This document shows positions 2,893 through 63,358 of a stretch of 64,000 bases of DNA, piece after piece; within the stretch, counting starts at the first letter, position 1, and each line of letters begins with the position of its first letter. Under the pieces are notes generated by a model that was given only the letters and a program-made list of their open reading frames with translations, did no database searches and had not been told where the DNA came from. Source of the stretch: Escherichia phage vB_EcoM_ESCO47; sequence record OM386662.1; one strand, 5' to 3'. Both the position numbers and the translations under genes were made by a program.

Positions 2893-2920
2893 AAAGTCCC
2901 TTCCGAAAGGTTGGGACTTT
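2893..2920 (+). terminator. Rho-independent terminator
   Basis: AAAGTCCC...GGGACTTT stem followed by T-run. Confidence 0.55.
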
Positions 2921-2933
2921 TTGGCATTTAGCA

Positions 2934-2963
2934 GTTTACATCTCGGTAAAATGGTGTTATAGT
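2934..2963 (+). promoter_or_regulatory. T4-type early promoter (-35 GTTTAC, -10 TATAGT, conserved downstream box)
   Basis: GTTTACA, 18-nt spacer, TATAGT, then AGTCCTATCAA box and AGGAG RBS. Confidence 0.55.
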
Positions 2964-5619: not shown

Positions 5620-5638
5620 GGGACCTTCGGGTCCCTTT
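5620..5638 (+). terminator. Rho-independent terminator with TTCG tetraloop
   Basis: GGGACC-TTCG-GGTCCC followed by TTT. Confidence 0.6.
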
Positions 5639-5666: not shown

Positions 5667-5695
5667 GTGTACATGCTTTTAGGATATGTTATTAT
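5667..5695 (+). promoter_or_regulatory. T4-type early promoter
   Basis: GTGTAC -35, 17-nt spacer, TATTAT -10, then AGACCTATC box. Confidence 0.5.
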
Positions 5696-7142: not shown

Positions 7143-7171
7143 GTTTACAAGGTCTATGGTTATGTTATTAT
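7143..7171 (+). promoter_or_regulatory. T4-type early promoter
   Basis: GTTTAC, 17-nt spacer, TATTAT, AGACCTATCAA box, GGAGG RBS. Confidence 0.55.
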
Positions 7172-7198
7172 AGACCTATCAACTACTGGAGGTAAAAC

Positions 7199-11081: not shown

Positions 11082-11130
11082 ACCGTGGTATTCGGCTCGA
11101 TGGGAGACTGTCGAGCCGGACGTCGAAACA

Positions 11131-11160
11131 GTTTACAACGACGAAGAAACATGTTATGAT
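11131..11160 (+). promoter_or_regulatory. T4-type early promoter
   Basis: GTTTAC, 18-nt spacer, TATGAT; preceded by an 8-bp inverted repeat at about 11092-11117. Confidence 0.45.
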
Positions 11161-11200
11161 GAACCTTCAATAAATGAATTAATTGATATGGAGTATGGTT

Positions 11201-11614
11201 ATGAATATTTCTGAAACTCGCGGTAAATGGTTCAAGATTGTTAAAGAAGATGAAGAACTACAAGCCAAGTTTCCTGAATTAAAGAAAGGAACAATCATCA
11301 AGGTAATTGGTATTTCAACAACGGCTGACCTGTCTGGTGGCATCGTTGAAGTGATGTTGTCTACTGGCGAGAAACTTTGCATCAACGACCGTGATATTGG
11401 TTTTTGGTGTTTCTGGGAATCTGATTCAATAGATGAACTCGAAGAAATTGACCAAGTAGTTCGTGACAGTGAACTACTTGGTGAATTCGAAGGGGAACGT
11501 ATTTCTTATGCTTTAGCTAAATTAGCCGCACAAGAAAATAATGACGGCTATGAAGGTAATCTGATGCAAGCCGCAGCGGAATACATTGAATATTTAGAAA
11601 GACGTTTAAGTTAA
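11201..11614 (+). CDS. Hypothetical acidic protein
   Basis: ORF-track 11183 start is TTG; ATG at 11201 has GGAG at good spacing. Confidence 0.45.
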   Translation: MNISETRGKWFKIVKEDEELQAKFPELKKGTIIKVIGISTTADLSGGIVEVMLSTGEKLCINDRDIGFWCFWESDSIDELEEIDQVVRDSELLGEFEGERISYALAKLAAQENNDGYEGNLMQAAAEYIEYLERRLS

Positions 11615-14130: not shown

Positions 14131-14597
14131 ATTATGATAGATTTTATCCTTGTGATTTTGTGAATGGCCCTGGTTGCAGGGTCGTTCTTTTCGTTACAGG
14201 TTGTTTGCATAAATGCGAAGGGTGTTATAATAAATCAACATGGAATGCTAGAAATGGTATTCCATTCACTGGTGAAACACTAGAACAATTAATTGAATGT
14301 TTGAATAATGATTATATAGAAGGATTGACTATAACCGGAGGTGACCCTCTCTATCCTGATAACAGAGATGTGATTCACTCCGTGGTTCAAACTATTAAAA
14401 ATCTTTATCCAAATAAAAGCATTTGGTTGTGGACAGGATATAAGTTTGAAGATATTAAACAACTAGAAATGCTTAAATATGTTGATGTTATTATTGATGG
14501 GAAGTATGAGAAAAATCTTCCGACCAAAAAACTGTGGCGAGGATCAGATAATCAGCGACTTTGGTCAAATACCGATGGGGTGTGGAAACATGATTAA
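14127..14597 (+). CDS. nrdG: Anaerobic RNR activating enzyme (radical SAM)
   Basis: 156 aa; CDFVNGPGCRVVLFVTGCLHKCEGC radical-SAM cysteine motif. Confidence 0.85.
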   Translation: MNYDRFYPCDFVNGPGCRVVLFVTGCLHKCEGCYNKSTWNARNGIPFTGETLEQLIECLNNDYIEGLTITGGDPLYPDNRDVIHSVVQTIKNLYPNKSIWLWTGYKFEDIKQLEMLKYVDVIIDGKYEKNLPTKKLWRGSDNQRLWSNTDGVWKHD

Positions 14598-17233: not shown

Positions 17234-17308
17234 CGATTTACAAACTCTTGGGAGTAGAGTATAATACTCCCAATGGATAATAAAATTTTAATTACCGAGG
17301 AAATTGAT

Positions 17309-19258: not shown

Positions 19259-19267
19259 ATAATTTAA

Positions 19268-19293
19268 AGGAAGCACTAGTGCTTCCTTTTTTT
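19268..19293 (+). terminator. Rho-independent terminator
   Basis: AGGAAGCAC-TA-GTGCTTCCT then TTTTTT. Confidence 0.6.
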
Positions 19294-19317
19294 GCTTTCT
19301 ATACGGGATGATAGAAT
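19293..19317 (+). promoter_or_regulatory. MotA-box middle promoter upstream of gene 47
   Basis: TGCTTTC then 19 nt to TAGAAT; shares GGATGATAGAAT with the gene 39 promoter. Confidence 0.45.
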
Positions 19318-20841: not shown

Positions 20842-22526
20842 AATCATTTAAATTAAATCGTGTTCGTTATAAAAATATAATGTCTGTTGGGCAAAATTTT
20901 ATCGATATCCAATTAGATAAAGTCCAAAAGACCTTAATCACAGGTAAAAATGGTGGTGGTAAATCTACGATGTTAGAAGCCATCACTTTTGGACTTTTCG
21001 GCAAACCATTTCGTGATGTTAAGAAAGGACAAATCATTAATAGCACGAACAAGAAAGAGCTCTTAGTTGAGCTTTGGATGGAATTCGATGATAAAAAATA
21101 CTTCATCAAACGAGGTCAAAAGCCCAATATTTTCGAAATCTCCGTTGACGGTGTTCGTCTCGATGAATCTGCCAGCAGTCGTGACTTCCAAGAAGAATTT
21201 GAACGTAGCATCGGAATGTCCTATGCGTCTTTTAAACAAATCGTCGTTCTTGGTACAGCAGGGTATACCCCTTTCATGGCTCTTAGCACCCCAGCTCGTA
21301 GAAAACTTGTCGAAGACCTTTTAGAAGTCGGCACACTCGCTGAAATGGATAAAATCAATAAGTCTCAAGTTCGCGAACTTAATTCCCGGGGGCAAGTTCT
21401 CGATGCCAAGAAAGATGGTGTTATCCAACAAATTAAGATTTATAATGAGAATATCGAACGTCAAAAGAAATTATCCGGTGATAATGTAGCTCGTCTACAG
21501 AATATGTATGATGACCTGGCTAAAGAAGCTCGGTCATTAAAAGCAGAAATCGAAGAAGCTAATGAGCGACTACTTAATATCGTTCTTGACGAAGACCCTA
21601 CTGAGGCATTCAACAAGATAGGACAAGAAGCATTATTGATTAAATCTAAAATTGACTCATATAACAAAGTTATTAAGATGTATCATGACGGCGGTACATG
21701 TCCTACTTGTGCATCACAGTTGCACCAGGGTGATCCTATTGTCTCTAAGATTACCGATAAGCTTCATGAATGTAATCACTCATTCGAGCAACTTACCTGT
21801 CACAGAGATAATCTGAGTGTCCTAGTGGACGAATATAGAGCTAATGTTAAGACTAAACAGGACCTTGCATCTGATATTCGTACCAAGAAACAAGCAATGA
21901 TTGCCACTATTGATAAAGCTAAGAAAGTTAAAGCTGCAATAGAGCAAGCCTCAGCAGAATTTATCGACCATGCCGATGAGATAGCTTTGCTTCAAAAAGA
22001 ACTTGATAAAATCATTAAAACAAAATCGGATATCGTTCTTGAAAAATACCATCGTGGTATTATCACAGATATGTTAAAAGATTCTGGTATTAAAGGTGCT
22101 ATCATTAAAAAATATGTGCCTCTGTTCAACAAGCAGATTAACCATTACCTTAAAATCATGGAAGCTGATTACGTGTTTTCTATTGATGAAGAATTCAATG
22201 AATCTATAAAATCCCGTGGTCGTGAAGATTTTAGTTATGCTTCATTTAGCCAAGGTGAAAAAGCACGTATTGATATCGCTTTATTGTTCACATGGCGAGA
22301 TATTGCTGAAAAGGTTTCTGGTGTTAGAATCAATACATTAATTATGGACGAAGTCATGGATTCCGCGACTGATTCTGAAGGTATTAAAGCTATTTCAACA
22401 ATTCTTAACTCTCTAACCGATGCAAACGTGTTTATAATTAGTCACAGAGACCATGACCCACAAGCTTATGGACAACATCTTCAAATGAGCAAAGTTGGAC
22501 GATTTACTGTAATGAAAGCCTCTTAA
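20838..22526 (+). CDS. 46: Recombination ATPase gp46 (Rad50/SbcC-like)
   Basis: 562 aa; Walker A GKNGGGKST, CPTC zinc hook, C-terminal LIMDEV Walker B. Confidence 0.9.
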   Translation: MKSFKLNRVRYKNIMSVGQNFIDIQLDKVQKTLITGKNGGGKSTMLEAITFGLFGKPFRDVKKGQIINSTNKKELLVELWMEFDDKKYFIKRGQKPNIFEISVDGVRLDESASSRDFQEEFERSIGMSYASFKQIVVLGTAGYTPFMALSTPARRKLVEDLLEVGTLAEMDKINKSQVRELNSRGQVLDAKKDGVIQQIKIYNENIERQKKLSGDNVARLQNMYDDLAKEARSLKAEIEEANERLLNIVLDEDPTEAFNKIGQEALLIKSKIDSYNKVIKMYHDGGTCPTCASQLHQGDPIVSKITDKLHECNHSFEQLTCHRDNLSVLVDEYRANVKTKQDLASDIRTKKQAMIATIDKAKKVKAAIEQASAEFIDHADEIALLQKELDKIIKTKSDIVLEKYHRGIITDMLKDSGIKGAIIKKYVPLFNKQINHYLKIMEADYVFSIDEEFNESIKSRGREDFSYASFSQGEKARIDIALLFTWRDIAEKVSGVRINTLIMDEVMDSATDSEGIKAISTILNSLTDANVFIISHRDHDPQAYGQHLQMSKVGRFTVMKAS

Positions 22527-23987: not shown

Positions 23988-24674
23988 ATGAAACTGACTA
24001 AAGACACCATCGCTATTCTTAAAAACTTTGCTTCCATTAACTCTGGTGTCATGCTTACTCCAGGTAAGTTTATTATGACTCGGGCTATTAACGGAACCAC
24101 ATATGCTGAAGCAACTATTACTGACGAAATTGATTTTGAAGTTGCTCTTTATGACCTTAACAGTTTTTTAAGTATTCTGAGTCTTGTTTCTGATGATGCA
24201 GAAATTTCTATGAATGAAGACGGTAATATTAAAATCGCCGACACTCGTTCTACTGTTTACTGGCCAGCCGCAGACAAGAGTACAATCGTATTCCCTAACA
24301 AACCAATTCAGTTCCCGGTAGCATCGGTTATCACTGAAATTAAAGCTGAAGACCTTCAGCAATTGCTTCGAGTTTCACGTGGACTCCAGATCGATACAAT
24401 TGCTATCACTAATAAAGATGGTAAAATCGTTGTAAATGGTTATAACAAAGTTGAAGACTCTGGTCTTACTCGTCCTAAGTATTCTTTGACTCTGACTGAT
24501 TATGATGGTTCTAATAACTTCAACTTTGTAATCAATATGGCTAACATGAAAATTCAACCAGGCAATTACAAAGTTATGCTCTGGGGAGCTGGTGATAAAG
24601 TTGCAGCCAAGTTCGAAAGCTCTCAAGTTAGTTATGTTATTGCAATGGAAGCTGATTCCACTCACGATTTCTAA
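23988..24674 (+). CDS. 45: Sliding clamp gp45
   Basis: 228 aa from MKLTKDT; same length as T4 gp45. Confidence 0.85.
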   Translation: MKLTKDTIAILKNFASINSGVMLTPGKFIMTRAINGTTYAEATITDEIDFEVALYDLNSFLSILSLVSDDAEISMNEDGNIKIADTRSTVYWPAADKSTIVFPNKPIQFPVASVITEIKAEDLQQLLRVSRGLQIDTIAITNKDGKIVVNGYNKVEDSGLTRPKYSLTLTDYDGSNNFNFVINMANMKIQPGNYKVMLWGAGDKVAAKFESSQVSYVIAMEADSTHDF

Positions 24675-24741
24675 GCTTTACGTTTAATATGTTATGATTT
24701 GGAGGAGAAATCCTCCACTTTTTGATAATGAGGAAAATTAT

Positions 24742-26640: not shown

Positions 26641-26645
26641 AGCAA

Positions 26646-26664
26646 TGGGACTTCGGTCCCATTT
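26646..26664 (+). terminator. Rho-independent terminator with TTCG tetraloop
   Basis: TGGGAC-TTCG-GTCCCA then TTT. Confidence 0.55.
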
Positions 26665-26722
26665 GGAGTATAATGTCTATAACAACAAACAAAGACAATA
26701 ACTCGTCTATAAAGGAAAAATA

Positions 26723-29434
26723 ATGCAAGAATTTTATTTGACAGTAGAACAGATTGGTGACTCAATTTTCGAACGTTATATCGATTCTAACGGTCGTGAA
26801 CGTGTTCGTGAAGTAGAGTATAAGCCATCATTGTTTGCACATTGTCCCGAAAGTCAGGCTACAAAATATTTTGATATCTATGGTAAACCATGTACTCGTA
26901 AGTTATTCGCTAATATGCGTGACGCATCTCAGTGGATTAAACGCATGGAAGATATCGGTCTTGAAGCATTAGGTATGGACGATTTTAAATTGTCTTATAT
27001 CAGTGATACGTATCCGGTTGATATCAAATACGACCATACTAAAATTCGTGTAGCGAACTTTGACATCGAAGTAACATCTCCTGACGGGTTCCCTGAGCCG
27101 TCACAAGCAAAACATCCTATTGATGCTATCACTCATTATGACTCAATTGATGACAGGTTTTATGTATTTGACCTTTTGAATTCTCCATATGGTAATGTAG
27201 AAGAATGGTCTATCGAAATTGCGGCTAAGCTTCAAGAACAAGGCGGTGATGAAGTTCCATCCGAAATTATCGACAAAATTGTTTATATGCCGTTTGATAA
27301 TGAAAAAGAATTATTGATGGAATATCTCAATTTCTGGCAACAGAAAACTCCTGTCATTTTAACCGGATGGAACGTTGAGACATTTGATATTCCATATGTG
27401 TATAACAGAATCAAGAATATTTTTGGTGAATCCACAGCAAAACGGTTGTCACCACATCGCAAGACTCGTGTTAAAGTTATTGAAAACATGTATGGTTCAC
27501 GAGAAATCATTACATTGTTTGGTATCTCTGTTCTTGATTATATCGACCTTTACAAAAAGTTCTCTTTCACGAACCAACCGTCATATTCTCTGGACTATGT
27601 TTCAGAATTTGAATTGAATGTTGGTAAACTGAAATACGACGGTCCTATTTCTAAACTTCGCGAAAGTAATCATCAACGATATATAAGCTATAACATCATC
27701 GACGTATATCGTGTATTGCAAATTGATGCTAAACGCCAGTTCATTAACTTGAGCTTGGACATGGGTTATTATGCTAAAATTCAGATTCAATCTGTGTTCA
27801 GTCCAATTAAAACTTGGGACGCTATTATTTTTAATAGCCTTAAAGAACAAAACAAGGTGATTCCACAAGGTCGTTCGCATCCAGTTCAACCTTACCCGGG
27901 TGCTTTTGTTAAGGAACCTATTCCAAATCGATACAAATATGTGATGAGCTTCGACCTCACATCTCTGTATCCAAGCATCATTCGCCAAGTGAATATTAGC
28001 CCAGAAACAATAGCAGGAACGTTTAAAGTAGCTCCATTACATGATTATATTAACGCTGTTGCTGAACGTCCTTCTGATGTGTACAGTTGTTCTCCTAACG
28101 GCATGATGTATTATAAAGACCGTGACGGTGTTGTTCCAACTGAAATCACTAAAGTCTTTAATCAACGTAAAGAACATAAAGGTTATATGCTTGCGGCTCA
28201 ACGTAATGGTGAAATAATTAAAGAGGCCTTACATAATCCTAATCTTTCTGTTGATGAACCATTAGATGTTGATTATCGTTTTGACTTCACTGACGAGATT
28301 AAAGAAAAGATTAAAAAGTTGTCTGCTAAATCTCTTAATGAAATGTTGTTTAGAGCTCAACGTACTGAAGTTGCAGGTATGACTGCACAAATTAACCGTA
28401 AATTGCTCATCAACTCGCTTTATGGTGCACTTGGAAACGTTTGGTTCCGTTATTACGATTTGCGTAATGCAACTGCAATCACAACATTCGGTCAAATGGC
28501 TTTACAATGGATTGAACGTAAAGTTAATGAATATCTTAACGAAGTTTGTGGTACACAAGGCGAAGCTTTCGTTCTATATGGTGATACAGACTCCATTTAC
28601 GTATCTGTAGATAAAATTATTGATAAGGTTGGTGAATCTAAATTCCGCGATACTAACCATTGGGTAGACTTCTTAGATAAGTTCGCTCGTGAACGTATGG
28701 AACCTGCTATTGATAGAGGTTTCCGTGAAATGTGCGAATACATGAATAATAAGCAACATTTGATGTTCATGGACCGAGAAGCTATCGCTGGGCCTCCGCT
28801 TGGTTCTAAAGGTATTGGTGGATTCTGGACTGGTAAGAAACGTTATGCATTAAACGTGTGGGATATGGAAGGAACCAGATACGCTGAACCTAAGCTTAAA
28901 ATCATGGGTCTCGAAACACAGAAATCTTCGACTCCTAAAGCAGTACAGAAAGCTCTTAAGGAATGTATTCGTCGTATGCTTCAGGAAGGCGAAGAATCAT
29001 TACAAGAATATTTTAAAGAGTTTGAAAAAGAGTTCCGTCAGCTGGATTATATTAGCATCTCATCAGTGTCATCGGCAAATAACATTGCTAAATATGATGT
29101 CGGTGGATTCCCAGGTCCTAAATGTCCATTCCATATTCGTGGAATTCTGACATATAACCGAGCTATCAAAGGTAATATTGATGCTCCACAAGTTGTAGAA
29201 GGTGAAAAGGTATACGTTCTGCCTTTACGTGATGGAAACCCGTTCGGTGATAAATGTATCGCATGGCCATCTGGTACAGAAATCACTGATTTGATTAAAG
29301 ACGACGTGCTTCGTTGGATGGACTACACTGTTCTCCTTGAGAAGACATTTATTAACCCACTTGAAGGATTCACGTCAGCAGCGAAACTCGATTATGAGAA
29401 GAAAGCATCTCTGTTCGATATGTTCGATTTTTGA
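26723..29434 (+). CDS. 43: DNA polymerase gp43 (family B)
   Basis: 903 aa; exonuclease FDIE and polymerase YGDTDS motifs; near-identical to my recollection of RB69 gp43. Confidence 0.95.
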   Translation: MQEFYLTVEQIGDSIFERYIDSNGRERVREVEYKPSLFAHCPESQATKYFDIYGKPCTRKLFANMRDASQWIKRMEDIGLEALGMDDFKLSYISDTYPVDIKYDHTKIRVANFDIEVTSPDGFPEPSQAKHPIDAITHYDSIDDRFYVFDLLNSPYGNVEEWSIEIAAKLQEQGGDEVPSEIIDKIVYMPFDNEKELLMEYLNFWQQKTPVILTGWNVETFDIPYVYNRIKNIFGESTAKRLSPHRKTRVKVIENMYGSREIITLFGISVLDYIDLYKKFSFTNQPSYSLDYVSEFELNVGKLKYDGPISKLRESNHQRYISYNIIDVYRVLQIDAKRQFINLSLDMGYYAKIQIQSVFSPIKTWDAIIFNSLKEQNKVIPQGRSHPVQPYPGAFVKEPIPNRYKYVMSFDLTSLYPSIIRQVNISPETIAGTFKVAPLHDYINAVAERPSDVYSCSPNGMMYYKDRDGVVPTEITKVFNQRKEHKGYMLAAQRNGEIIKEALHNPNLSVDEPLDVDYRFDFTDEIKEKIKKLSAKSLNEMLFRAQRTEVAGMTAQINRKLLINSLYGALGNVWFRYYDLRNATAITTFGQMALQWIERKVNEYLNEVCGTQGEAFVLYGDTDSIYVSVDKIIDKVGESKFRDTNHWVDFLDKFARERMEPAIDRGFREMCEYMNNKQHLMFMDREAIAGPPLGSKGIGGFWTGKKRYALNVWDMEGTRYAEPKLKIMGLETQKSSTPKAVQKALKECIRRMLQEGEESLQEYFKEFEKEFRQLDYISISSVSSANNIAKYDVGGFPGPKCPFHIRGILTYNRAIKGNIDAPQVVEGEKVYVLPLRDGNPFGDKCIAWPSGTEITDLIKDDVLRWMDYTVLLEKTFINPLEGFTSAAKLDYEKKASLFDMFDF

Positions 29435-36126: not shown

Positions 36127-37299
36127 ATGTCTGATTTAAAATCTCGTCTGATTAAAGCTTCTACTTCCAAAATGACCGCTGACTTGACTAAGTCTAAGCT
36201 CTTTAATAATCGTGATGAAGTCCCTACTCGTATTCCTATGTTGAATATTGCATTAGGTGGTGCATTGAATGCTGGTTTGCAGTCTGGTTTGACTATTTTT
36301 GCTGCCCCGTCTAAACACTTTAAAACATTGTTTGGGTTGACAATGGTTGCCGCATATATGAAGAAATACCCAGATGCGATCTGTTTGTTCTATGATTCAG
36401 AATTTGGTGCTTCAGAATCTTATTTCCGTTCAATGGGTGTTGATTTGGACCGCGTAGTTCACACTCCAATCCAATCAGTAGAACAACTTAAAGTTGATAT
36501 GACTAATCAGCTTGATGCAATCGAACGCGGTGAAAAGGTTATCATCTTTATTGACTCAATCGGTAACACAGCGTCTAAGAAAGAAACTGAAGATGCATTG
36601 AACGAAAAAGTTGTTGGTGATATGTCTCGTGCTAAGGCACTTAAATCTCTGTTCCGCATTGTGACCCCGTATCTGACTATTAAAGATATTCCGTGTGTTG
36701 CAATTAACCATACAGCAATGGAAATCGGCGGATTGTATCCTAAAGAGATTATGGGCGGCGGTACAGGTATTCTTTATTCTGCCAACACGGTATTTTTTAT
36801 CTCTAAACGTCAGGTTAAAGAAGGTACAGAATTGGCCGGTTATGACTTCACGTTGAAAGCAGAAAAATCTCGCACAGTTAAAGAGAAATCTACATTCCCG
36901 ATCACTGTTAATTTTGATGGTGGTATCGACCCATTCAGTGGCTTGTTAGAAATGGCAACTGAAATTGGTTTTGTAGTTAAGCCTAAAGCAGGTTGGTATG
37001 CTCGTGAATTCCTTGACGAAGAAACCGGTGAAATGGTTCGTGAAGAAAAATCCTGGCGAGCTAAAGCCACAGATTGCGTAGAATTCTGGGGACCTTTGTT
37101 TAAACACAAACCTTTCCGAGATGCAATTGAAACTAAATATAAACTAGGTGCTATCTCTTCTATTAAAGAAGTTGACGACGCAGTTAACGAATTAATCAAT
37201 GCTAAAACGTCTTCGAAAATTCCGGTAAAAGCTTCTGGTGCTCCATCTGCAGCTGATATCGAAAATGATTTAGACGATATGGAAGATTTTGATGAATAA
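36127..37299 (+). CDS. uvsX: RecA-like recombinase UvsX
   Basis: 390 aa; RecA-fold Walker A region; acidic C-terminus. Confidence 0.9.
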   Translation: MSDLKSRLIKASTSKMTADLTKSKLFNNRDEVPTRIPMLNIALGGALNAGLQSGLTIFAAPSKHFKTLFGLTMVAAYMKKYPDAICLFYDSEFGASESYFRSMGVDLDRVVHTPIQSVEQLKVDMTNQLDAIERGEKVIIFIDSIGNTASKKETEDALNEKVVGDMSRAKALKSLFRIVTPYLTIKDIPCVAINHTAMEIGGLYPKEIMGGGTGILYSANTVFFISKRQVKEGTELAGYDFTLKAEKSRTVKEKSTFPITVNFDGGIDPFSGLLEMATEIGFVVKPKAGWYAREFLDEETGEMVREEKSWRAKATDCVEFWGPLFKHKPFRDAIETKYKLGAISSIKEVDDAVNELINAKTSSKIPVKASGAPSAADIENDLDDMEDFDE

Positions 37300-37633
37300 T
37301 CTTGATGATTTGAATCTAGAAATCGTTGATGAATCCCCTTCTTCGGAAGGGGAGGACATTCGCAAAGAACGTGTGTTTAATGAATCTCTTAAAGTTATCC
37401 AATCGGCAATGGAGAACGTCATTCAAGAGATTCTTATTACACTTGAAGATGGTTCTCATCATATAGTCTATATTACAAAATTAGACTGGGTTGATGGAAA
37501 AATCGTAATGGACTTTGCAGTTCTTGATCAGGACAGAAAAGCAGAACTTGTGCCGCATGTTGAAAAGTGTGTTACAATGCAAGTACAACAAGCTTTTAAT
37601 GAACGAACCAAGAAAAAATTTAAATTCTTTTAA
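37289..37633 (+). CDS. 40: gp40-position protein (head-vertex assembly chaperone in T4)
   Basis: 114 aa between uvsX and 41 as in T4; positional. Confidence 0.5.
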   Translation: MMNNLDDLNLEIVDESPSSEGEDIRKERVFNESLKVIQSAMENVIQEILITLEDGSHHIVYITKLDWVDGKIVMDFAVLDQDRKAELVPHVEKCVTMQVQQAFNERTKKKFKFF

Positions 37634-37642
37634 GGAGTTATC

Positions 37643-39085
37643 GTGGTAGAAATTATTTTGTCTCATCTTGTATATGACCAGACTTATTTTTCTAAAGTCT
37701 GGCCGTATATGGATTCTGAGTATTTTGAGCGTGGACCGGCAAAAAATGTCTTTAAAATTATAAAGAACCACGTTAACGAATACAGTGCTATGCCATCTAT
37801 TAACGCATTAAAGGTGGCTTTAGATAATAGTTCTTTAACCGAAAACGAGTATAAAGGAACTTCCGATTTAATCGATAAATTGGTCGATTCTCCTGAAGAC
37901 CCTGATTGGTTGGTTAAAGAAACCGAGAAATATGTCCAGCAAAAAGCAATGTATAATGCTACGTCTAAAATCATTGAGATTCAGACTAATGCTGAACTTC
38001 CACCTGAACAACGTAATAAGAAAATGCCTGACGTAGGAGCTATTCCAGACATTATGCGTCAAGCACTTTCAATCTCATTTGATAGTTATGTCGGTCATGA
38101 CTGGATGGATGACTATGAAGCTCGTTGGTTATCTTATCAGAATAAAGCACGTAAGGTCCCGTTCAAATTAAACATTTTGAATAAAATCACTAAAGGTGGT
38201 GCTGAAACCGGTACACTGAATGTTTTAATGGCTGGTGTTAACGTCGGTAAATCTTTAGGCCTTTGTTCACTTGCTGCAGATTATCTTCAAACAGGTCATA
38301 ATGTTCTTTATATTTCCATGGAAATGGCTGAAGAAGTTTGTGCTAAGCGTATAGATGCAAACATGCTTGACGTATCACTTGATGATATCGATGATGGTAA
38401 TGTATCTTATGCTGAATATAAAGCCAAGATGGAAAAATGGCGTTCAAAATCCACATTAGGACGTTTAGTAGTTAAACAGTATCCTACCGGCGGAGCTAAT
38501 GCTAATACATTCCGTGCATTACTTAACGAATTAAAACTCAAGAAGAACTTCGTTCCTTCTGTAATCATGATTGACTACTTGGGTATTTGTGGGTCTTGTC
38601 GTATCAGAGTTTACACTGAAAATAGCTACACATTAGTTAAAGCTATCGCAGAAGAACTTCGTGCTTTAGCGGTAGAATCTGAAACTGTTCTATGGACTGC
38701 AGCTCAGGTTGGTCGAGCAGCATGGGACGCTTCTGATATGAACATGAGTGATATCGCAGAATCAGCAGGTTTACCGGCGACAGCAGACTTCATGTTAGCA
38801 GTAATTGAGACCGAAGAACTTGCTCAAGCAGAACAGCAGCTCATTAAACAAATCAAATCACGGTATGGTGATAAGAACAAATGGAATAAATTCCTGATGG
38901 GTGTACGTAAAGGCAATCAGAAGTGGGTTGAAATTGAACAAGAAGGTATGAACACCACAAACACGGTAAATGAAAACGCAGGTGCTCAGATGCGTCACGC
39001 GGAAGCGAATCGTACGGAACGCGTAGGAAAAGCTAAAGCGACTAGAGCAGATTTAGACAATCTAGCCAATGAATTAAAATTTTAA
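37643..39085 (+). CDS. 41: Replicative helicase gp41 (DnaB-like)
   Basis: 480 aa; GTG start after AGGAG; Walker A GVNVGKS. Confidence 0.9.
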   Translation: MVEIILSHLVYDQTYFSKVWPYMDSEYFERGPAKNVFKIIKNHVNEYSAMPSINALKVALDNSSLTENEYKGTSDLIDKLVDSPEDPDWLVKETEKYVQQKAMYNATSKIIEIQTNAELPPEQRNKKMPDVGAIPDIMRQALSISFDSYVGHDWMDDYEARWLSYQNKARKVPFKLNILNKITKGGAETGTLNVLMAGVNVGKSLGLCSLAADYLQTGHNVLYISMEMAEEVCAKRIDANMLDVSLDDIDDGNVSYAEYKAKMEKWRSKSTLGRLVVKQYPTGGANANTFRALLNELKLKKNFVPSVIMIDYLGICGSCRIRVYTENSYTLVKAIAEELRALAVESETVLWTAAQVGRAAWDASDMNMSDIAESAGLPATADFMLAVIETEELAQAEQQLIKQIKSRYGDKNKWNKFLMGVRKGNQKWVEIEQEGMNTTNTVNENAGAQMRHAEANRTERVGKAKATRADLDNLANELKF

Positions 39086-39090
39086 TAAAA

Positions 39091-39108
39091 AGGAGACTTC
39101 GGTCTCCT
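39091..39108 (+). terminator. Putative terminator hairpin with TTCG tetraloop
   Basis: AGGAGAC-TTCG-GTCTCCT then TTTCGGGG (weak T-run). Confidence 0.45.
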
Positions 39109-39114
39109 TTCGGG

Positions 39115-39144
39115 GTTTACACCGCTCTTAAATCATGTTACTAT
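39115..39144 (+). promoter_or_regulatory. T4-type early promoter
   Basis: GTTTAC, 18-nt spacer, TACTAT, AGACCTATCAA box, GGAG RBS. Confidence 0.55.
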
Positions 39145-39170
39145 AGACCTATCAACTACTGGAGAACAAA

Positions 39171-39488
39171 ATGAAAACTATCGATTGCAAAGCAGAGTTT
39201 AAAGTTTTTTACCATGGCTCAAGCAGTGCAGCAAACATCGAAAACATGCTTTGTCCTCCTGAAGAAACAGGTGTACTGTCTGAAACCGGACGTAAGAAAA
39301 ACCTAAATCGAGTATTCTTTACTGAAGACATTGGTTTAGCAAAGATTTATGCAGGACGAGCAGCACGATCCTATGGAGGTGAACCACGTCTTTATCGAGT
39401 AATCACTCCGGTAGACGTAGTTCAAATGAATGATACTAAAGGTGCTACGGTATATCACGCCGAATGGGCCTTCTGTGAGGAAATATGA
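39171..39488 (+). CDS. Hypothetical protein
   Basis: 105-aa ORF. Confidence 0.45.
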   Translation: MKTIDCKAEFKVFYHGSSSAANIENMLCPPEETGVLSETGRKKNLNRVFFTEDIGLAKIYAGRAARSYGGEPRLYRVITPVDVVQMNDTKGATVYHAEWAFCEEI

Positions 39489-39673
39489 GCAAATTAACTA
39501 AAGTTACTTTTATCGGTTGGTTTAAAAGCGGTGAGATGTTCACTAAAGATATCATGTTATCAGGTGATCGCGAAGAAATCGAGTGGGTTACGGTACAACT
39601 TGCTGAAGTGAACAACGCATTAGTTAAAGCATTTGTTAATGACGAGAAAGTTTTCGAAGCAGATTTTCGATAA
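39485..39673 (+). CDS. Hypothetical protein
   Basis: 62-aa ORF, ATGA coupling. Confidence 0.4.
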   Translation: MSKLTKVTFIGWFKSGEMFTKDIMLSGDREEIEWVTVQLAEVNNALVKAFVNDEKVFEADFR

Positions 39674-39686
39674 TTTTAAAATAACT

Positions 39687-39716
39687 GTTTACAGGCCCCA
39701 CATACTGTGTTACTAT
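39687..39716 (+). promoter_or_regulatory. T4-type early promoter
   Basis: GTTTAC, 18-nt spacer, TACTAT, TCTATCAACTACAGAGG box. Confidence 0.5.
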
Positions 39717-39744
39717 CTTTCTATCAACTACAGAGGAAATTGAA

Positions 39745-40113
39745 ATGAAAAAATTAATCGCTTTAGCAATGGTATTTGGATTAACCGGATGTGGTGCCCA
39801 TGGCTTTATCCCTAATAACGTCGGCCAATTGATTTACAATCCGAATGTTAAACAGTATGACCAACCTAAAGTTGAAGTGGAAGACCCAGTTACTGTAGGT
39901 AATCGAATGATTCAAGCTGATGCTCATGCTCAACGTTATCGTGATTCTGATACTGTAGCTGTGTCAAAAGAACAGCGCGTTAAAGAACATTGCTTACAGG
40001 CTACTGAAATCGCATTCATTCGCTATGTTGAAACAACTGGTAAAGAGCCTTCCCAGAAACAAATCGCGAATAACTACGTCCAGTGTATTGAACGTTTAAA
40101 CAAATTTAATTAA
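39745..40113 (+). CDS. Putative lipoprotein
   Basis: MKKLIALAMVFGLTGCG lipobox-like signal. Confidence 0.5.
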   Translation: MKKLIALAMVFGLTGCGAHGFIPNNVGQLIYNPNVKQYDQPKVEVEDPVTVGNRMIQADAHAQRYRDSDTVAVSKEQRVKEHCLQATEIAFIRYVETTGKEPSQKQIANNYVQCIERLNKFN

Positions 40114-40174
40114 TTGGTTTACGCCAAAGTTAAAACAAGATACTATAAACATAACAAATCAAGAGGAAATTAAC

Positions 40175-40423
40175 ATGGAATTATTCGTAGCTAGTTCAGT
40201 AGCAGTTTTAATCGCAGGTATTGGTTCAATCATCATTTACATGTTGCCTTGGGTAATCGCACTTATTCGTGGCACAAAAAGCACAACAGCAATCTTCTTT
40301 GTATCTTTACTCTTTAACTGGACGATGGTTGGTTGGATTGGAACTTTAATTTGGTCTATCGTTGCCAAAAAGAAATCGGCTCAGCAGCCTCAACAAGTAA
40401 TTATTATTCGAGAAAAAGAATAA
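40175..40423 (+). CDS. Small membrane protein
   Basis: Two hydrophobic helices. Confidence 0.45.
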   Translation: MELFVASSVAVLIAGIGSIIIYMLPWVIALIRGTKSTTAIFFVSLLFNWTMVGWIGTLIWSIVAKKKSAQQPQQVIIIREKE

Positions 40424-40427
40424 ACTT

Positions 40428-40458
40428 GTTTACATTATAGATGGACTATAGTATAGTA
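40428..40458 (+). promoter_or_regulatory. T4-type early promoter
   Basis: GTTTAC ... TATAGTAGTCCTATCAA box. Confidence 0.5.
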
Positions 40459-40486
40459 GTCCTATCAAATCAACTAAGGAGATAAA

Positions 40487-40780
40487 ATGAAAAAGTTATC
40501 ATTGGCAGCAATCTTACTTGCAGTATCATGCGCACCGGCTCCAGTTACGGCAGGTTATGATAAAGACCTCTGTGAGTGGTCAATGACTGCAAATCAAGAA
40601 GATGTTGAACAACAAATCTTCTCTGATATCATGAACATCACTAAACGAGACCGTCCTAATATGGTTAATAAAGTTGTTGAACAACTTAAGTCTGGCGGTA
40701 TCATGCAGTACAATTATGTTTTGTATTGTGACCCTAATTTTGATAACAAAGATATCGTAACCGAAATCACAGGTGAATAA
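40487..40780 (+). CDS. sp: Spackle-like periplasmic protein
   Basis: 97 aa with signal peptide; GYDKDLCEWSM segment matches my recollection of T4 Sp; 61.x position. Confidence 0.55.
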   Translation: MKKLSLAAILLAVSCAPAPVTAGYDKDLCEWSMTANQEDVEQQIFSDIMNITKRDRPNMVNKVVEQLKSGGIMQYNYVLYCDPNFDNKDIVTEITGE

Positions 40781-40781
40781 T

Positions 40782-41432
40782 ATGATTTATTATATGCACA
40801 AAAATGCGCCATTTAAATATGGTAAATTTCCTAATGCACAATGTTATAATATAACGCCGAATGAAAATAATAACGGATATCATCTCGGTGTAATTTTTGT
40901 AATTGTTAAAGATAACGAAATCGTCGCCTGGGCGGATTTTAAAGGTACAACATATGATGTTAATCCTGTGCCTTTCACATATTACAATATAACGGATTTG
41001 GCATATGATTATAATTGGTTTAATCATGACACGTTGGCTCATATTGAAGGTGTAGGATTTGACATCTCTTATTCTAGCTATTCATTATGTCCTATGAGCC
41101 GAGCTCACGGTAAAGATGCATCATATCTTTCAATTCGTAAACGTGTAAACTTCAAACGTAGTACAGATTATGTTGGTGGTCTCTTTGTTAAAGATAATAA
41201 AATAACCCGTATTAGTTATCCTTTAAGTGTAGGTCAAAAAGATGTTGATGTTGATTTAGACTTAACTGAAAATAACATTAATCGTATTGCTTCTGTATAT
41301 TTTGATATCGATGAAAAAATTGTAGTGTGTGGATACGAATTACCACCTGAAGAAAAGGCTGAAGCAATTGAAGTCGAATTAGAAATTTCTGTTGATGACC
41401 AAATATTTAATGCATTTATGAATCGAGGTTAA
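40782..41432 (+). CDS. Hypothetical protein
   Basis: ORF-track start 40773 is GTG; ATG 40782 follows upstream stop. Confidence 0.45.
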   Translation: MIYYMHKNAPFKYGKFPNAQCYNITPNENNNGYHLGVIFVIVKDNEIVAWADFKGTTYDVNPVPFTYYNITDLAYDYNWFNHDTLAHIEGVGFDISYSSYSLCPMSRAHGKDASYLSIRKRVNFKRSTDYVGGLFVKDNKITRISYPLSVGQKDVDVDLDLTENNINRIASVYFDIDEKIVVCGYELPPEEKAEAIEVELEISVDDQIFNAFMNRG

Positions 41433-41433
41433 A

Positions 41434-41631
41434 ATGGCTACTGCAATTTGCACTGGTTCTAAAATTAGTGTTTTTACAAGTTTTGAAGATTATGAAGTTG
41501 TTTCAAAACACCAATGCCATATTAGCGTAAAAGCTAATGACGGTGTAATTTGGAATATTCCACAGTATGAAGGCACTACATATGAAGTCACAGATATAAA
41601 TGGTGACAAAGCAATCTTTGTAATTGATTAA
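41434..41631 (+). CDS. Hypothetical small protein
   Basis: 65-aa ORF. Confidence 0.4.
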   Translation: MATAICTGSKISVFTSFEDYEVVSKHQCHISVKANDGVIWNIPQYEGTTYEVTDINGDKAIFVID

Positions 41632-41650
41632 ATATACTCAGGAGGTACCT

Positions 41651-42118
41651 ATGGGTATTATTAACACCGCAATAGATTCTGTTTACGCATATAAGTTTAT
41701 TCGACTAATGCAAAAACCTTTTACCGAATGGAAAGCATACGAAGCCAAAATTATCGATGAACGTGGAAGTGTTCTTAAACGTCCTTCTACTCCCGAAGAA
41801 AAAGCGGCGTATACACCTTTTCATGCTTCAGTTCGTTCAATGAAGCGAATGATGAGCACTGTTCCGGGTCTTAATGGAATGGCCTCAATGATGTCTGCCT
41901 GGAGTGCTGTAGCTTCACGCTATAACATTACGGAAGAACAACAGAAAGAAATATTTAAAGAACTCCCTTTATTTGAGGATATGGTTGCTGGTGATTCAGG
42001 CGGCAGTCCTCAAGCTATTGCATCAGGAACAACTACAGGTGCAGTCGTAAATAAAGGTCCAGACCAAATTCCTTCCAAGAAAAGAAAGCGAATTAAAGTA
42101 AATATTAATAAGTTGTGA
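41651..42118 (+). CDS. Hypothetical protein
   Basis: ATG after AGGAGGT. Confidence 0.45.
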   Translation: MGIINTAIDSVYAYKFIRLMQKPFTEWKAYEAKIIDERGSVLKRPSTPEEKAAYTPFHASVRSMKRMMSTVPGLNGMASMMSAWSAVASRYNITEEQQKEIFKELPLFEDMVAGDSGGSPQAIASGTTTGAVVNKGPDQIPSKKRKRIKVNINKL

Positions 42119-44470: not shown

Positions 44471-44480
44471 GTTAATTATA

Positions 44481-44505
44481 AGGAATCCTTCGGGATTCCT
44501 TTTTT
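44481..44505 (+). terminator. Rho-independent terminator with TTCG tetraloop
   Basis: AGGAATCC-TTCG-GGATTCCT then TTTTT. Confidence 0.6.
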
Positions 44506-44515
44506 CGTTTCTACA

Positions 44516-44545
44516 GTTTACATCCTTGTAAAACAGTGTTATAGT
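44516..44545 (+). promoter_or_regulatory. T4-type early promoter
   Basis: GTTTAC, 18-nt spacer, TATAGT, AGTCCTATCAA box, GAGGAG RBS. Confidence 0.55.
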
Positions 44546-52489: not shown

Positions 52490-52915
52490 ATGGCTTTTAA
52501 AGGTTTTGAAGTTGGTAAGAAATATCGTATTATCAAAGGACAGGAAGATAATTTCTTGAGAATTCTTAATACGACTGGTAAACGTCTTAATACTAATCTG
52601 CATACTACTTTATTGTCCAAAGATTTTATTGTGGAAGAGATGATTGGTTATGGTGTTTCGATTATTGCTGTAGAAGCTGTAGGCGATTACGGCCGAACTA
52701 TTCATAGTATGCAAGGTGATATTCTGCTTTATGGTGCAGAATTTAAATTCTTTGAAGAAGTTCCGGAACCAGATACAGCTGTCGATTTCAAAAAAGGCTC
52801 TATAGAATTTGTTGATGGTTCGGTGATCGTATCAGGCGATGTGGTCATTACAGTTAAAAGTGAACAAGGGCGTTTGGCTGCAATTGATGCACTTCAGAAA
52901 ATTAAATTTAAATAA
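52490..52915 (+). CDS. Hypothetical protein
   Basis: ORF-track start 52484 is TTG; ATG 52490 more plausible. Confidence 0.45.
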   Translation: MAFKGFEVGKKYRIIKGQEDNFLRILNTTGKRLNTNLHTTLLSKDFIVEEMIGYGVSIIAVEAVGDYGRTIHSMQGDILLYGAEFKFFEEVPEPDTAVDFKKGSIEFVDGSVIVSGDVVITVKSEQGRLAAIDALQKIKFK

Positions 52916-52932
52916 GGGCTTCGGCCCTTTTT
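52915..52932 (+). terminator. Rho-independent terminator with TTCG tetraloop
   Basis: AGGGC-TTCG-GCCCT then TTTTT. Confidence 0.55.
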
Positions 52933-52956
52933 GCTTTAGATTTCGGATGATAGAAT
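52932..52956 (+). promoter_or_regulatory. MotA-box middle promoter upstream of gene 39
   Basis: TGCTTTA then 19 nt to TAGAAT; GGATGATAGAAT shared with the gene 47 promoter. Confidence 0.45.
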
Positions 52957-52978: not shown

Positions 52979-54796
52979 ATGATTAAAAATGAAATTAAAG
53001 TATTATCAGACGTAGAACATATTAAGAAACGTAGTGGTATGTATATTGGTTCTTCGGCTAAAGAAGCACATGAGCGTTTTTTGTTTGGTAAATATCAACA
53101 AGTTGAATATGTTCCTGGTCTGGTTAAATTAATCGATGAGATTATTGACAACTCGGTTGATGAAGCTATTCGTACATCATTTAAGTTCGCAAATAAAATT
53201 GATGTGCAAATTAAAAATAATCAAGTTTCGGTGGAAGATAACGGACGTGGTATTCCTCAAGGTTTAGTTACCGACCAAACAGGTGAACAAATTCCTGGGC
53301 CTGTAGCAGCCTGGACTATTCCAAAGGCCGGCGGTAACTTTGGCGATGACTCTGAACGCAAGACCGGTGGTATGAACGGCGTCGGGAGTAGTTTAACTAA
53401 TATCTTCTCTACGTTGTTTACAGGCATCACGTCAGATGGCGAAAATGAAATCACTGTTAATTGTTCAAACGGAATGGAAAACAAATCATGGTCTTCTAAG
53501 AAATCTAAAGGTAAAGGAACTAAAGTAATCTTCACTCCTGATTTCTCTTCATTTGAAGAGCATAATTTATCTCAAATTTATTTAGATATTACTTTAGACC
53601 GACTTCAAACATTGGCAGTCGTTTATCCTGATATCAAGTTCACATTTAATGGTAAAAAGGTTGATGGTAATTTTAAACGATTTGCTAAACAATTTGGCGA
53701 AGATAACATCATTCAAGAAAACGATAAAGTGTCAATCGCATTCACAACATCGCCTGACGGTTTTCGACATTTGACGTATGTGAACAACATTCATACTAAA
53801 AATGGTGGACATCATGTTGAATGTGTAATGGATGATATCTGCGAACATCTTTTGCCCGGTATTAAAAAGAAATATAAGGGTATTGAGGTAACTAAAGCTC
53901 GTGTTAAAGAATGTCTCACGATGCTGATGTTTATTCGTGATATGAGCAACATGCGTTTTGATTCTCAGACTAAAGAACGTTTAACGTCAACGTATGGTGA
54001 TATTCGTAATCATATCCAATTAGATGCTAAGAAAATTGCTCAGTCACTTCTTAAAAATGAAGCTCTGATTATGCCTATTGTTGAAGCAGCATTAGCTCGT
54101 AAATTAGCAGCAGAAAAGGCCGCCGAAACTAAAGCAGCTAAAAAGGCCACTAAAGCAAAAGTTCATAAGCATATTAAAGCTAATCAATGTGGTAAAGATG
54201 CAGATACGACATTGTTCTTAACAGAAGGTGATTCGGCAATTGGTTATCTCATTGATGTTCGTGACCGTGAACTACACGGCGGATTCCCATTACGTGGTAA
54301 GGTGATGAATAGCTGGGGTATGTCATATGCTGATATGATGAAGAACAAAGAGCTCTTTGATATCTGTGCTATCACAGGTCTTATTCTCGGTGAAAAGGCA
54401 GAGAACACGAACTATCGTAATATCGCAATTATGACCGATGCCGATCATGACGGTCTTGGAAGTATCTATCCGGCTTTGCTTGCTTTCTTTAGTAATTGGC
54501 CTGAATTGTTTGAACAAGGACGTATTCGCTTTGTTAAAACTCCGGTAATTATTGCACAAATTGGCAAAACACAAAAATGGTTTTATACTGTAGCTGAGTA
54601 TGAAGAAGCTAAAGAATCATTACCAAAACACGGTATTCGATATATTAAAGGACTTGGTTCACTTGAAAAATCCGAATACCGTGAAATGATTCAGAATCCA
54701 GTTTATGACGTAGTTAAATTGCCTGAAAACTGGAAAGAGTTGTTTGAAATGTTGATGGGTAATGACCCGGATCTTCGTAAAGAATGGATGTCCTAA
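52979..54796 (+). CDS. 39: Topoisomerase II large subunit gp39 (GyrB-like), single uninterrupted ORF covering the gene 60 region
   Basis: 605 aa; GHKL ATPase motifs (ELIDNSVDE, GRGIP) and TOPRIM-like C-terminus in one frame. Confidence 0.9.
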   Translation: MIKNEIKVLSDVEHIKKRSGMYIGSSAKEAHERFLFGKYQQVEYVPGLVKLIDEIIDNSVDEAIRTSFKFANKIDVQIKNNQVSVEDNGRGIPQGLVTDQTGEQIPGPVAAWTIPKAGGNFGDDSERKTGGMNGVGSSLTNIFSTLFTGITSDGENEITVNCSNGMENKSWSSKKSKGKGTKVIFTPDFSSFEEHNLSQIYLDITLDRLQTLAVVYPDIKFTFNGKKVDGNFKRFAKQFGEDNIIQENDKVSIAFTTSPDGFRHLTYVNNIHTKNGGHHVECVMDDICEHLLPGIKKKYKGIEVTKARVKECLTMLMFIRDMSNMRFDSQTKERLTSTYGDIRNHIQLDAKKIAQSLLKNEALIMPIVEAALARKLAAEKAAETKAAKKATKAKVHKHIKANQCGKDADTTLFLTEGDSAIGYLIDVRDRELHGGFPLRGKVMNSWGMSYADMMKNKELFDICAITGLILGEKAENTNYRNIAIMTDADHDGLGSIYPALLAFFSNWPELFEQGRIRFVKTPVIIAQIGKTQKWFYTVAEYEEAKESLPKHGIRYIKGLGSLEKSEYREMIQNPVYDVVKLPENWKELFEMLMGNDPDLRKEWMS

Positions 54797-54818
54797 GCTC
54801 CTTCGGGAGCTTTATTTT
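54796..54818 (+). terminator. Putative terminator with TTCG tetraloop
   Basis: AGCTCC-TTCG-GGAGCT then TTATTTT. Confidence 0.5.
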
Positions 54819-59408: not shown

Positions 59409-59430
59409 GGGGACTTCGGTCCCCTTTTTT
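59409..59430 (+). terminator. Rho-independent terminator with TTCG tetraloop
   Basis: GGGGAC-TTCG-GTCCCC then TTTTTT. Confidence 0.65.
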
Positions 59431-60237: not shown

Positions 60238-60268
60238 GTTTACAGCTAAGTAGGACTATGATATAGTA
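60238..60268 (+). promoter_or_regulatory. T4-type early promoter
   Basis: GTTTAC ... TATAGTAGTCCTATC box, GGAGG RBS. Confidence 0.5.
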
Positions 60269-60293
60269 GTCCTATCTAAAGGAGGATAACATC

Positions 60294-60749: not shown

Positions 60750-60780
60750 GTTTACATCAAGGTAGGATTATGGTATAGTA
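60750..60780 (+). promoter_or_regulatory. T4-type early promoter
   Basis: GTTTAC ... TATAGTAGTCCTATCAA box. Confidence 0.5.
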
Positions 60781-60807
60781 GTCCTATCAAAATATGAGGA
60801 ACACAAA

Positions 60808-61008: not shown

Positions 61009-61084
61009 AATTGTACAAACTCCTGAGAGCAGAGTATAATGCTCTCATGGATTACAAAACATCAACTTACTTGAGGAAATTTAT

Positions 61085-63208: not shown

Positions 63209-63288
63209 GCTTCACAGGCCTAGCCCTCGGGTTCTTGGTCACAGTCACATTGTTAGTCATCTTACTTCTATGGTTAGACCGTGAATGA

Positions 63289-63309
63289 GGAGCCTTCGGG
63301 CTCCTTTTT
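63289..63309 (+). terminator. Rho-independent terminator with TTCG tetraloop
   Basis: GGAGCC-TTCG-GGCTCC then TTTTT. Confidence 0.6.
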
Positions 63310-63329: not shown

Positions 63330-63358
63330 GTTTACATGCGCGTCAAGCATGATATTAT
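63330..63358 (+). promoter_or_regulatory. T4-type early promoter
   Basis: GTTTAC, 17-nt spacer, TATTAT, AGACCTATCAA box. Confidence 0.55.

Follow-up and report, generated by a model that had tools for sequence, protein, structure and literature searches.

The early and middle gene region of the RB69-like phage studied here carries, on its sense strand, a set of unusually stable C(UUCG)G hairpins, most of which stand directly behind a stop codon. Very probably these hairpins act as T4-type partial terminators where a U-tract follows the stem and otherwise define or protect RNA 3' ends, and their frequent nearness to a promoter, in the arrangement known as PeSL or PmSL, would arise from the scarcity of intergenic spacers. 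The hairpins are real, strongly non-random and already known, being a textbook property of T4-like phages that had been predicted at these very sites in RB69.

The analysed stretch consists of 64,000 nt of Escherichia phage vB_EcoM_ESCO47 (OM386662.1; hereafter the window, with positions counted from its first nucleotide). It covers the early/middle genes of a T4-type, RB69-like phage of the genus Mosigvirus, has a G+C content of ~37% and holds nearly all of its long ORFs on the + strand. Positions 37000-42000 are ~95% identical to Escherichia phages AV109 and NRG-P0074 (Mosigvirus, RB69 group, T4-like). Gene names were assigned from the NRG-P0074 annotation and T4 gene order; by these, the prereplicative genes on the + strand are 47, 46, 45, 44, 62, regA, 43, uvsX, 40, 41, dmd, sp, 61, soc, 39, rIIA, rIIB, 52 and motA. 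In the ORF from 63397, Pfam finds MotA_activ (E = 1.6e-39) and MotCF, and the phage thus encodes MotA. Since it is also T4-like, the "early or middle promoters" of the original prediction are T4-type promoters.

In order to define the hairpins, both strands of the window were searched for perfect stems of at least 5 bp with a TTCG loop. Nine were found on the + strand (5620, 26644, 37334, 39089, 44480, 52914, 54795, 59409 and 63288), whereas 300 dinucleotide shuffles averaged 0.34 and never gave more than 3; the - strand contains no perfect G+C-rich hairpin of this kind. The closing pair is C-G in all nine, and eight lie 0-6 nt from a stop codon, the exception being the 37334 hairpin, which falls within the coding part of gene 40. 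The window has 29 G+C-rich perfect hairpins with a tetraloop, and every loop sequence apart from TTCG is represented by at most one of them. CTTCGG stands within a hairpin at 9 of its 16 sense occurrences and at none of 13 antisense ones (Fisher p = 0.0012). An Rfam scan of the whole window at gathering thresholds returned no matches.

Relatives were represented by loci around the gp41, gp39, gp52, rIIB, gp47 and regA homologues, taken from IMG/VR. These 285 loci (1.06 Mb) contain 53 distinct UUCG hairpins in sense orientation and one in antisense; 51 of the 53 are C-G closed, and the runner-up loop is GAAA (15 sense, 0 antisense). Downstream of gene 41, seven distinct stems all carry an invariant cUUCGg, and the stems GGAGAC, GGAGC, GAGCC, GGGC, GGACC and GGAGGC are followed by GTTTACA in lineages with 65-97% gp41 identity. 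In the alignment of this site 100% of the cells are paired, five of seven pairs have changed on both sides, and the covariation score was reached by 0 of 500 shuffles. A fixed loop with covarying stems is also found upstream of gene 39, T4-type phages included, and downstream of rIIB, 52 and regA; orthologous sites show occasional loop variants (UACG, UCCG, UUAG, GAAA, CUAGU). The orientation of the loop and the compensatory changes in the stems imply that selection acts on the transcript. On this comparative evidence the UUCG hairpins are a selected RNA structure, and they illustrate a structure-preserving evolution in which the loop is fixed and the stem is free.

Table 1. Hairpins and predicted promoters of the window discussed in the text.
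Feature	Position	Strand	Remark
Interrupted hairpin AAAGUCCC..CC-GAAA-GG..GGGACUUU, then UUUUU	2893..2924	+	not UUCG; terminator score +5
Early promoter GTTTACA-17-TATAGT	2934..2963	+	
cUUCGg hairpin GGGACC-UUCG-GGUCCC, tail UUUAGGGGG	5620..5635	+	U-tract borderline
Early promoter GTGTACA-16-TATTAT	5667..5695	+	
10-bp hairpin, CUAG loop, then U7	19266..19289	+	terminator-like, not UUCG
Middle promoter 5' of gene 47: MotA box TTTTGCTTTC, 12 nt, TAGAAT	19290..19317	+	
cUUCGg hairpin, no U-tract	26644..26663	+	begins 4 nt past regA stop codon
cUUCGg hairpin in 5' coding region of gene 40	37334..37353	+	35 nt past uvsX stop; no U-tract, no promoter
Focal cUUCGg hairpin AAAGGAGAC-UUCG-GUCUCCUUU	39089..39110	+	starts 4 nt past gene 41 stop codon
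T4-type early promoter GTTTACA-17-TACTAT, then AGACCTATCAA leader	39115..39144	+	upstream of ORF 39171-39488
cUUCGg hairpin, then U6, after soc-like gene	44480..44501	+	canonical terminator shape; RB69 'mrh.2<--soc'
Early promoter GTTTACA-17-TATAGT	44516..44545	+	
cUUCGg hairpin AAGGGC-UUCG-GCCCUU, then U5, 5' of gene 39	52914..52929	+	
Middle promoter of gene 39: MotA box TTTTGCTTTA, 12 nt, TAGAAT	52929..52956	+	overlaps terminator T-run
cUUCGg hairpin overlapping gene 39 stop codon, tail UAUUUUAAUUUU	54795..54812	+	next ATG 27 nt on
cUUCGg hairpin, then U6, after rIIB	59409..59424	+	next ATG 20 nt on
cUUCGg hairpin, then U5, after small ORF behind gene 52	63288..63305	+	RB69 'motA<--52'
Early promoter GTTTACA-16-TATTAT, upstream of motA (63397 onward)	63330..63358	+	
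Early promoters with inverted repeats around -10	7150-7177, 17248-17273, 60250-60275, 60761-60788, 61024-61047		

The focal junction downstream of gene 41 (39091-39144) has the layout TAA-TAAA-AAGGAGAC-TTCG-GTCTCCTT-TCGGG-GTTTACA-(17 nt)-TACTAT-AGACCTATCAA...GGAG...ATG. Its G+C core at 39091, AGGAGAC-TTCG-GTCTCCT, is extended by A-U pairs to 39089-39110; RNAfold predicts a 9-bp hairpin, with -16 kcal/mol (z = -3.5) as the MFE of the 46-nt segment. After the core come TTTCGGGG, GTTTACA (39115-39121), 17 nt and TACTAT (39139-39144), an early promoter that is predicted to drive ORF 39171-39488. The RNA tail that follows the core has UUU, then CGGGG, and nothing longer in U, so that it (UUUCGGGG) stays short of the roughly five or more U in 8 nt expected of a U-tract; the terminator score of -17 stems from there being only UUU before CGGGG. 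It is at this site that the earlier interpretation is weakest.

Comparison with other lineages separates the two parts of this junction. Some of them carry, downstream of gene 41, a hairpin with a textbook tail (GCUCC-UUUUUUGUUUU); in the lineage of the window the tail is shortened and the promoter thereby brought to within 4 nt of the hairpin. In T4-type and several other lineages the promoter directly follows the gene 41 stop codon (TAGTTTACA) and the hairpin is absent. The early promoter 3' of gene 41 is kept in nearly all relatives, and, being present even in lineages that have no hairpin, it is the more conserved partner. In RB69 and NRG-P0074 the RB69ORF041c module (375 nt) sits between two early promoters; the window lacks this module (39086-39170 compared with loci L002, 22087-22604, and L141 of the relatives), and similarity to RB69 and NRG-P0074 switches inside the promoter, just past the common hairpin and GTTTACA, to the promoter of the next gene. 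This single case points to an indel bounded by a PeSL-type element, and the position of the junction after the hairpin and GTTTACA is consistent with modular shuffling. Read on the - strand (39088-39111), the focal hairpin runs into UUUUUAUU, which makes a better U-tract than the sense side has, and the hairpin could also stop antisense (late-strand) transcription.

The focal site is one of seven junctions, near 2893, 5620, 19268, 39091, 44481, 52915 and 63289, at which a G+C stem with a TTCG loop and a T-run was said to be immediately followed by an early or middle promoter. A hairpin with a promoter-like site behind it does occur at all seven, each with stem-loop, promoter, Shine-Dalgarno sequence and ATG in one spacer, as in the PeSL/PmSL layout. 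The loop is UUCG at five of them. At 2893 the stem is interrupted and GAAA-capped, and at 19268 the loop is CUAG; a second Mosigvirus shows, at the 19266 place, a UUCG hairpin whose stem is different. The T-run is canonical at 2893, 19268, 44481, 52915 and 63289, weak at 39091 and borderline at 5620. Promoters were predicted as early by a -35 element GTTTAC(A/T), a spacer of 17 +/- 1 and a -10 element TAnnnT, in sense orientation upstream of a Shine-Dalgarno sequence and ATG, and as middle by a MotA box (a/t)(a/t)(a/t)TGCTT(t/c)A lying 11-13 nt upstream of TAnnnT. Early promoters of T4 type were thus predicted at 2934, 5667, 39115, 44516 and 63330, together with ~17 others that have no upstream hairpin, and MotA-box middle promoters at 19290 (TTTTGCTTTC-12-TAGAAT) and 52929 (TTTTGCTTTA-12-TAGAAT). 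In both middle-promoter cases the T-run of the terminator is at the same time the 5' A/T-rich part of the MotA box (TTTTTGCTTTA). Upstream of gene 39, several genera share this overlap and relatives keep the MotA-type middle promoter.

Terminator shape was scored by an approximation of the 1990 d'Aubenton-Carafa discriminant (hairpin energy per length plus T-tail) with modern folding energies. Scores are positive at 2893, 19268, 44481, 52915, 54795, 59409 and 63289, the same seven sites that have an adequate U-tract. They are negative at 39091, 26644 and 37334, where the U-tract is inadequate, and at 5620 (-6), where both score and U-tract are borderline. Only 18 of the 53 UUCG hairpins of relatives are followed by 5 or more T within 8 nt of the stem; many orthologues lack a U-tract and run directly into a Shine-Dalgarno sequence. 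To judge by their tails, then, the UUCG hairpins are not uniformly terminators, and the generalised terminator reading does not hold for the focal hairpin, which has no proper U-tract, or for two others that have none at all, one of them in the gene 40 coding sequence. For annotation this means that T4-type cUUCGg hairpins and PeSL/PmSL junctions should be labelled as such, with "intrinsic terminator" kept for hairpins that have a U-tract. The strongest terminator candidate of the scan, a GUUG-loop hairpin with a T-run at 14162-14187, was rejected, as it lies in frame in a coding sequence (MNYDRFYPCDFVNGPGCRVVLFVTGCLHKCEGC) which we take to be the N-terminus of an NrdG-type radical-SAM activase; it spans the codons for GPGCRVVLFV and exemplifies a false positive of pattern-based terminator scans. 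RNase III sites were also dismissed: the stems measure 5-10 bp, and RNase III needs longer ones. A literature search for 3'-end maps of T4-like phages, by Term-seq or otherwise, found none; what it yielded on termination were the data on the T4 gene 40 stem-loop and the PeSL reporter assays in RB49/phi1.

Four of the nine UUCG hairpins, at 26644, 37334, 54795 and 59409, had been missed by the original prediction. In the spacer between regA and gene 43, the 26644 hairpin is followed by a conserved GGAG-TATAAT (-10-like, 26669-26674) and then by an RB69-type hairpin of the gp43 translational operator (AGAC-AAUAACUC-GUCU, 26693-26708), an operator described in PMC3014915. T4-type loci share this spacer layout, and the hairpin with its -10-like TATAAT adds an eighth stem-loop and promoter layout to the seven listed. 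Mimicry of the MotA-box core GCTT(C/T)A by the loop DNA GCTTCG was considered at this place and rejected, given a spacing to TATAAT of ~15 nt instead of 11-13 nt and the fact that the window reads ACTTCG there. The spacer (26664-26725) also holds a 16-codon ORF, which begins at 26673 and whose terminal TAATG overlaps the start codon of gene 43.

Gene 40 opens with an ATG at 37292 that overlaps the stop codon of uvsX; the 37334 hairpin, at codons 15-21 of this gene, encodes ESPSSEGE. Its position is kept in most T4-like lineages (loci L003-L048), with differing stems, encoded peptides and loops (UUCG, UCAG, GGAA, GAAG, GAAA, UAAG, CUAGU). Over ten lineages, 79 of 80 stem cells are paired in a direct tally, a MAFFT alignment having misplaced two rows, and the hairpin is retained where gp40 identity to the query falls to ~40%. 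For the orthologous stem-loop of T4 gene 40, an in vivo RNA 3' end was mapped immediately downstream (Hinton 1989, as shown in PMC12152347). At 54795 and 59409, the next start codon is only 20-27 nt away and leaves no room for a promoter. As hairpins of terminator shape with no promoter behind them would silence the next gene, these two must be leaky or serve RNA stability.

How far the combination of hairpin and promoter can be generalised is limited by several counts. Three of the nine UUCG hairpins (37334, 54795, 59409) lie too close to the next start codon for a promoter to fit in between, and a hairpin lies upstream in only ~8 of 25 spacers that contain a promoter-like site, which speaks against the cassette as a rule. 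About two-thirds of the promoter-like sites have no hairpin before them: a strong hairpin lies within 30 nt upstream of only five of ~22 early-promoter-like sites on the + strand, and 19290 and 52929 are the only plausible middle promoters that have one. Under a crude gene model, hairpins were not enriched in spacers with a promoter (7 of 25) over those without one (6 of 31; Fisher p = 0.53); the count of 8 of 25 includes the 52914 hairpin, which fell below the energy cut-off and was added by hand, while the p value refers to 7 of 25. Since co-occurrence does not exceed what the sharing of scarce intergenic spacers would give, "cassette" denotes in this window a layout and not a demonstrated unit, and the gene 41 promoter, which T4-type and other lineages retain in the complete absence of a hairpin, likewise argues against a fixed hairpin-promoter unit. 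The proposal that each downstream unit is insulated and re-initiated fits the published PeSL/PmSL model; for the window it is too broad and applies to a subset of the junctions. Full insulation is moreover unlikely, because prereplicative transcription in T4 relies on early transcripts that extend into downstream genes.

Inverted repeats of 8-11 bp bracket the -10 hexamer in several early promoters (Table 1), for example GTAGGACTAT-GATATA-GTAGTCCTAT and TGAGAGCA-GAGTATAA-TGCTCTCA, and such repeats around -10 also occur in relatives, downstream of gene 41. The strongest hairpin of the window, at 11091-11120, is intergenic, with a 13-bp stem, a GAGA loop, ~-21 kcal/mol and no T-run; an early-promoter-like GTTTACA at 11131 follows 10 nt behind it, ahead of ORF 11183-11614. 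Between genes 45 and 44 (24671-24717) the order is reversed and the elements overlap, in that a MotA-box-like CTAAGCTTTA, 12 nt and TATGAT lead directly into a GAAA-capped hairpin (24700-24717, then CUUUUU), which would form only in read-through transcripts from gene 45; the RB69 list contains a '44<--45' terminator (Nolan 2006, PMC1524935).

In the mechanism that we favour, the hairpins with a U-tract (44480, 52914, 54795, 59409 and 63288, and the non-UUCG hairpins at 2893 and 19266) would be partial intrinsic terminators for E. coli RNA polymerase, whereas those whose U-tract is short or absent (39089, 5620, 26644, 37334) would serve chiefly to set or shield the 3' ends of RNA, by making polymerase pause or stop with the aid of a factor and by blocking 3'-to-5' exonucleases. 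The part played as an exonuclease barrier is proposed by analogy with what is generally known of E. coli mRNA decay and with the single T4 example at gene 40. Because intergenic spacers are few and short, a hairpin often comes to lie 4-30 nt upstream of the next sigma-70 early or MotA-dependent middle promoter, and this proximity within a short spacer yields the composite PeSL/PmSL junctions.

It is possible, though we hold it to be doubtful, that the hairpins are primarily stabilisers of mRNA 3' ends or decay barriers and that termination is incidental, the ends being made by endonuclease cleavage farther downstream, with RegB or RNase E at the adjacent GGAG/Shine-Dalgarno sequence as candidate cutters, and then trimmed back to the hairpin by an exonuclease. 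Such a role would suit the hairpins with no U-tract (26644, 37334) or a weak one (39089, 5620), the small share of the relatives' UUCG hairpins that have at least 5 T, and sites such as GGAGGC-UUCG-GCCUCC-UAAGAGGAAAUUAUG downstream of rIIB or AAAGGGC-UUCG-GCCCUUU-GGAGG downstream of 39, which run straight into a Shine-Dalgarno sequence and ATG. It would also suit the literature: early intergenic GGAG motifs are cleaved by RegB, against which secondary structure gives protection; an in vivo 3' end is displayed in PMC12152347 for the stem-loop of T4 gene 40, which lacks a U-tract; and in T4 how stable delayed-early RNA is has been acknowledged as an issue. Textbook U-tracts at five window UUCG hairpins and at many orthologues, and the termination by PeSL stem-loops in reporter assays, nevertheless count against incidental termination, and the two roles are not mutually exclusive. 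Rather unlikely in our judgement is the related idea that UUCG-type hairpins with no U-tract are not terminators but a conserved class of their own, regulating 3' ends or attenuation, of which the clearest example, within the first 60 nt of gene 40, would set the uvsX : 40/41 expression ratio; if so, the ratio-setting step would be factor-dependent and would involve Rho, GoF-like LSm proteins or exonucleases.

The RB69ORF041c indel and the similarity switch at its border, the replacement of the hairpin at the gene 47 site where the promoter was kept, and the recombination and mini-circles documented in the PeSL papers could alternatively suggest that hairpin and promoter sequences are kept mainly as DNA recombination linkers, for PeSL shuffling, and that transcription is secondary. 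We consider this improbable, as the sense bias among relatives and the compensatory changes around a fixed cUUCGg point to the transcript and not to duplex DNA; in addition, stems differ between sites and offer little homology, so that the conserved promoter is the more plausible substrate for crossover. An origin of the hairpins by chance, as fortuitous palindromes or as a result of base composition, has a negligible probability. Some segments folded alone are not exceptional (z = -0.8 at 5620, -1.0 at 59409 and -1.6 at 52915), but the excess over shuffles, the strict strand bias and C-G closure, and covariation at five orthologous sites refute this idea.

Among the closest known systems is T4 itself. 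CUUCGG hairpins of T4 intercistronic regions were reported by Tuerk 1988 (PNAS 85:1364) and are portrayed, in the accounts of PMC8948821 and PMC7165471, as abundant in intergenic regions and specific to the sense strand. As far as these accounts go, the window shares with T4 the loop, the C-G closing pair and the intergenic, sense-only distribution, and the location of more than half of all sense CTTCGG in hairpins (9/16) agrees with the T4 report. The window differs in its RB69-like genome, in individual stems and in some sites, T4-type phages having no gene 41 hairpin, and in nothing essential. Reviews of T4 transcription describe early transcripts that extend into downstream genes and treat delayed-early RNA stability as an open issue.

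For RB69, Rho-independent terminators were predicted with TransTerm (Nolan et al. 2006, PMC1524935, Additional file 6). That list covers the same junctions (41, both sides of 60plus39, soc, 45/44, 47 and 52/motA), and its entry 'RB69ORF041c<--41' (20965-20980) is the identical 16-mer, GGAGACTTCGGTCTCC, found in the focal hairpin. Its entries are predictions only, and the hairpins at regA/43, gene 40 and rIIB are not among them. Measured against the canonical E. coli terminator, a G+C hairpin with a U-tract after a stop codon, the sites at 44480, 52914, 54795, 59409, 63288, 2893 and 19266 are alike, whereas 39089, 5620, 26644 and 37334 have an inadequate U-tract and the last of these lies inside a coding sequence.

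The arrangement of a stem-loop with an early promoter is known as PeSL, and its middle-promoter version as PmSL (Arbiol 2010, PMC2839356; Comeau 2014, PMC4122927). In RB49/phi1, a PeSL showed effective termination as well as promoter activity in lacZ fusions, recombination and mini-circles between PeSL elements were documented, and insulation with re-initiation was proposed together with modular shuffling (PMC2839356, PMC4122927). The window has the same order of elements, a stem-loop followed by a sigma-70-like TTTACW-N17-TAYWAT or Mot-box promoter, a Shine-Dalgarno sequence and ATG; the proposed roles as terminator/attenuator and in re-initiation are the same, and an apparent indel in the window borders on an element of this kind. 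In the PeSL papers the emphasis is on recombination and on stems of the type G(n)-loop-C(n) or AGNA-loop-TCNT, and a search of their text found no mention of a UUCG loop. Several of the window's hairpin and promoter layouts adjoin core genes (41, 39, 47 and motA) and are not confined to hyperplastic regions.
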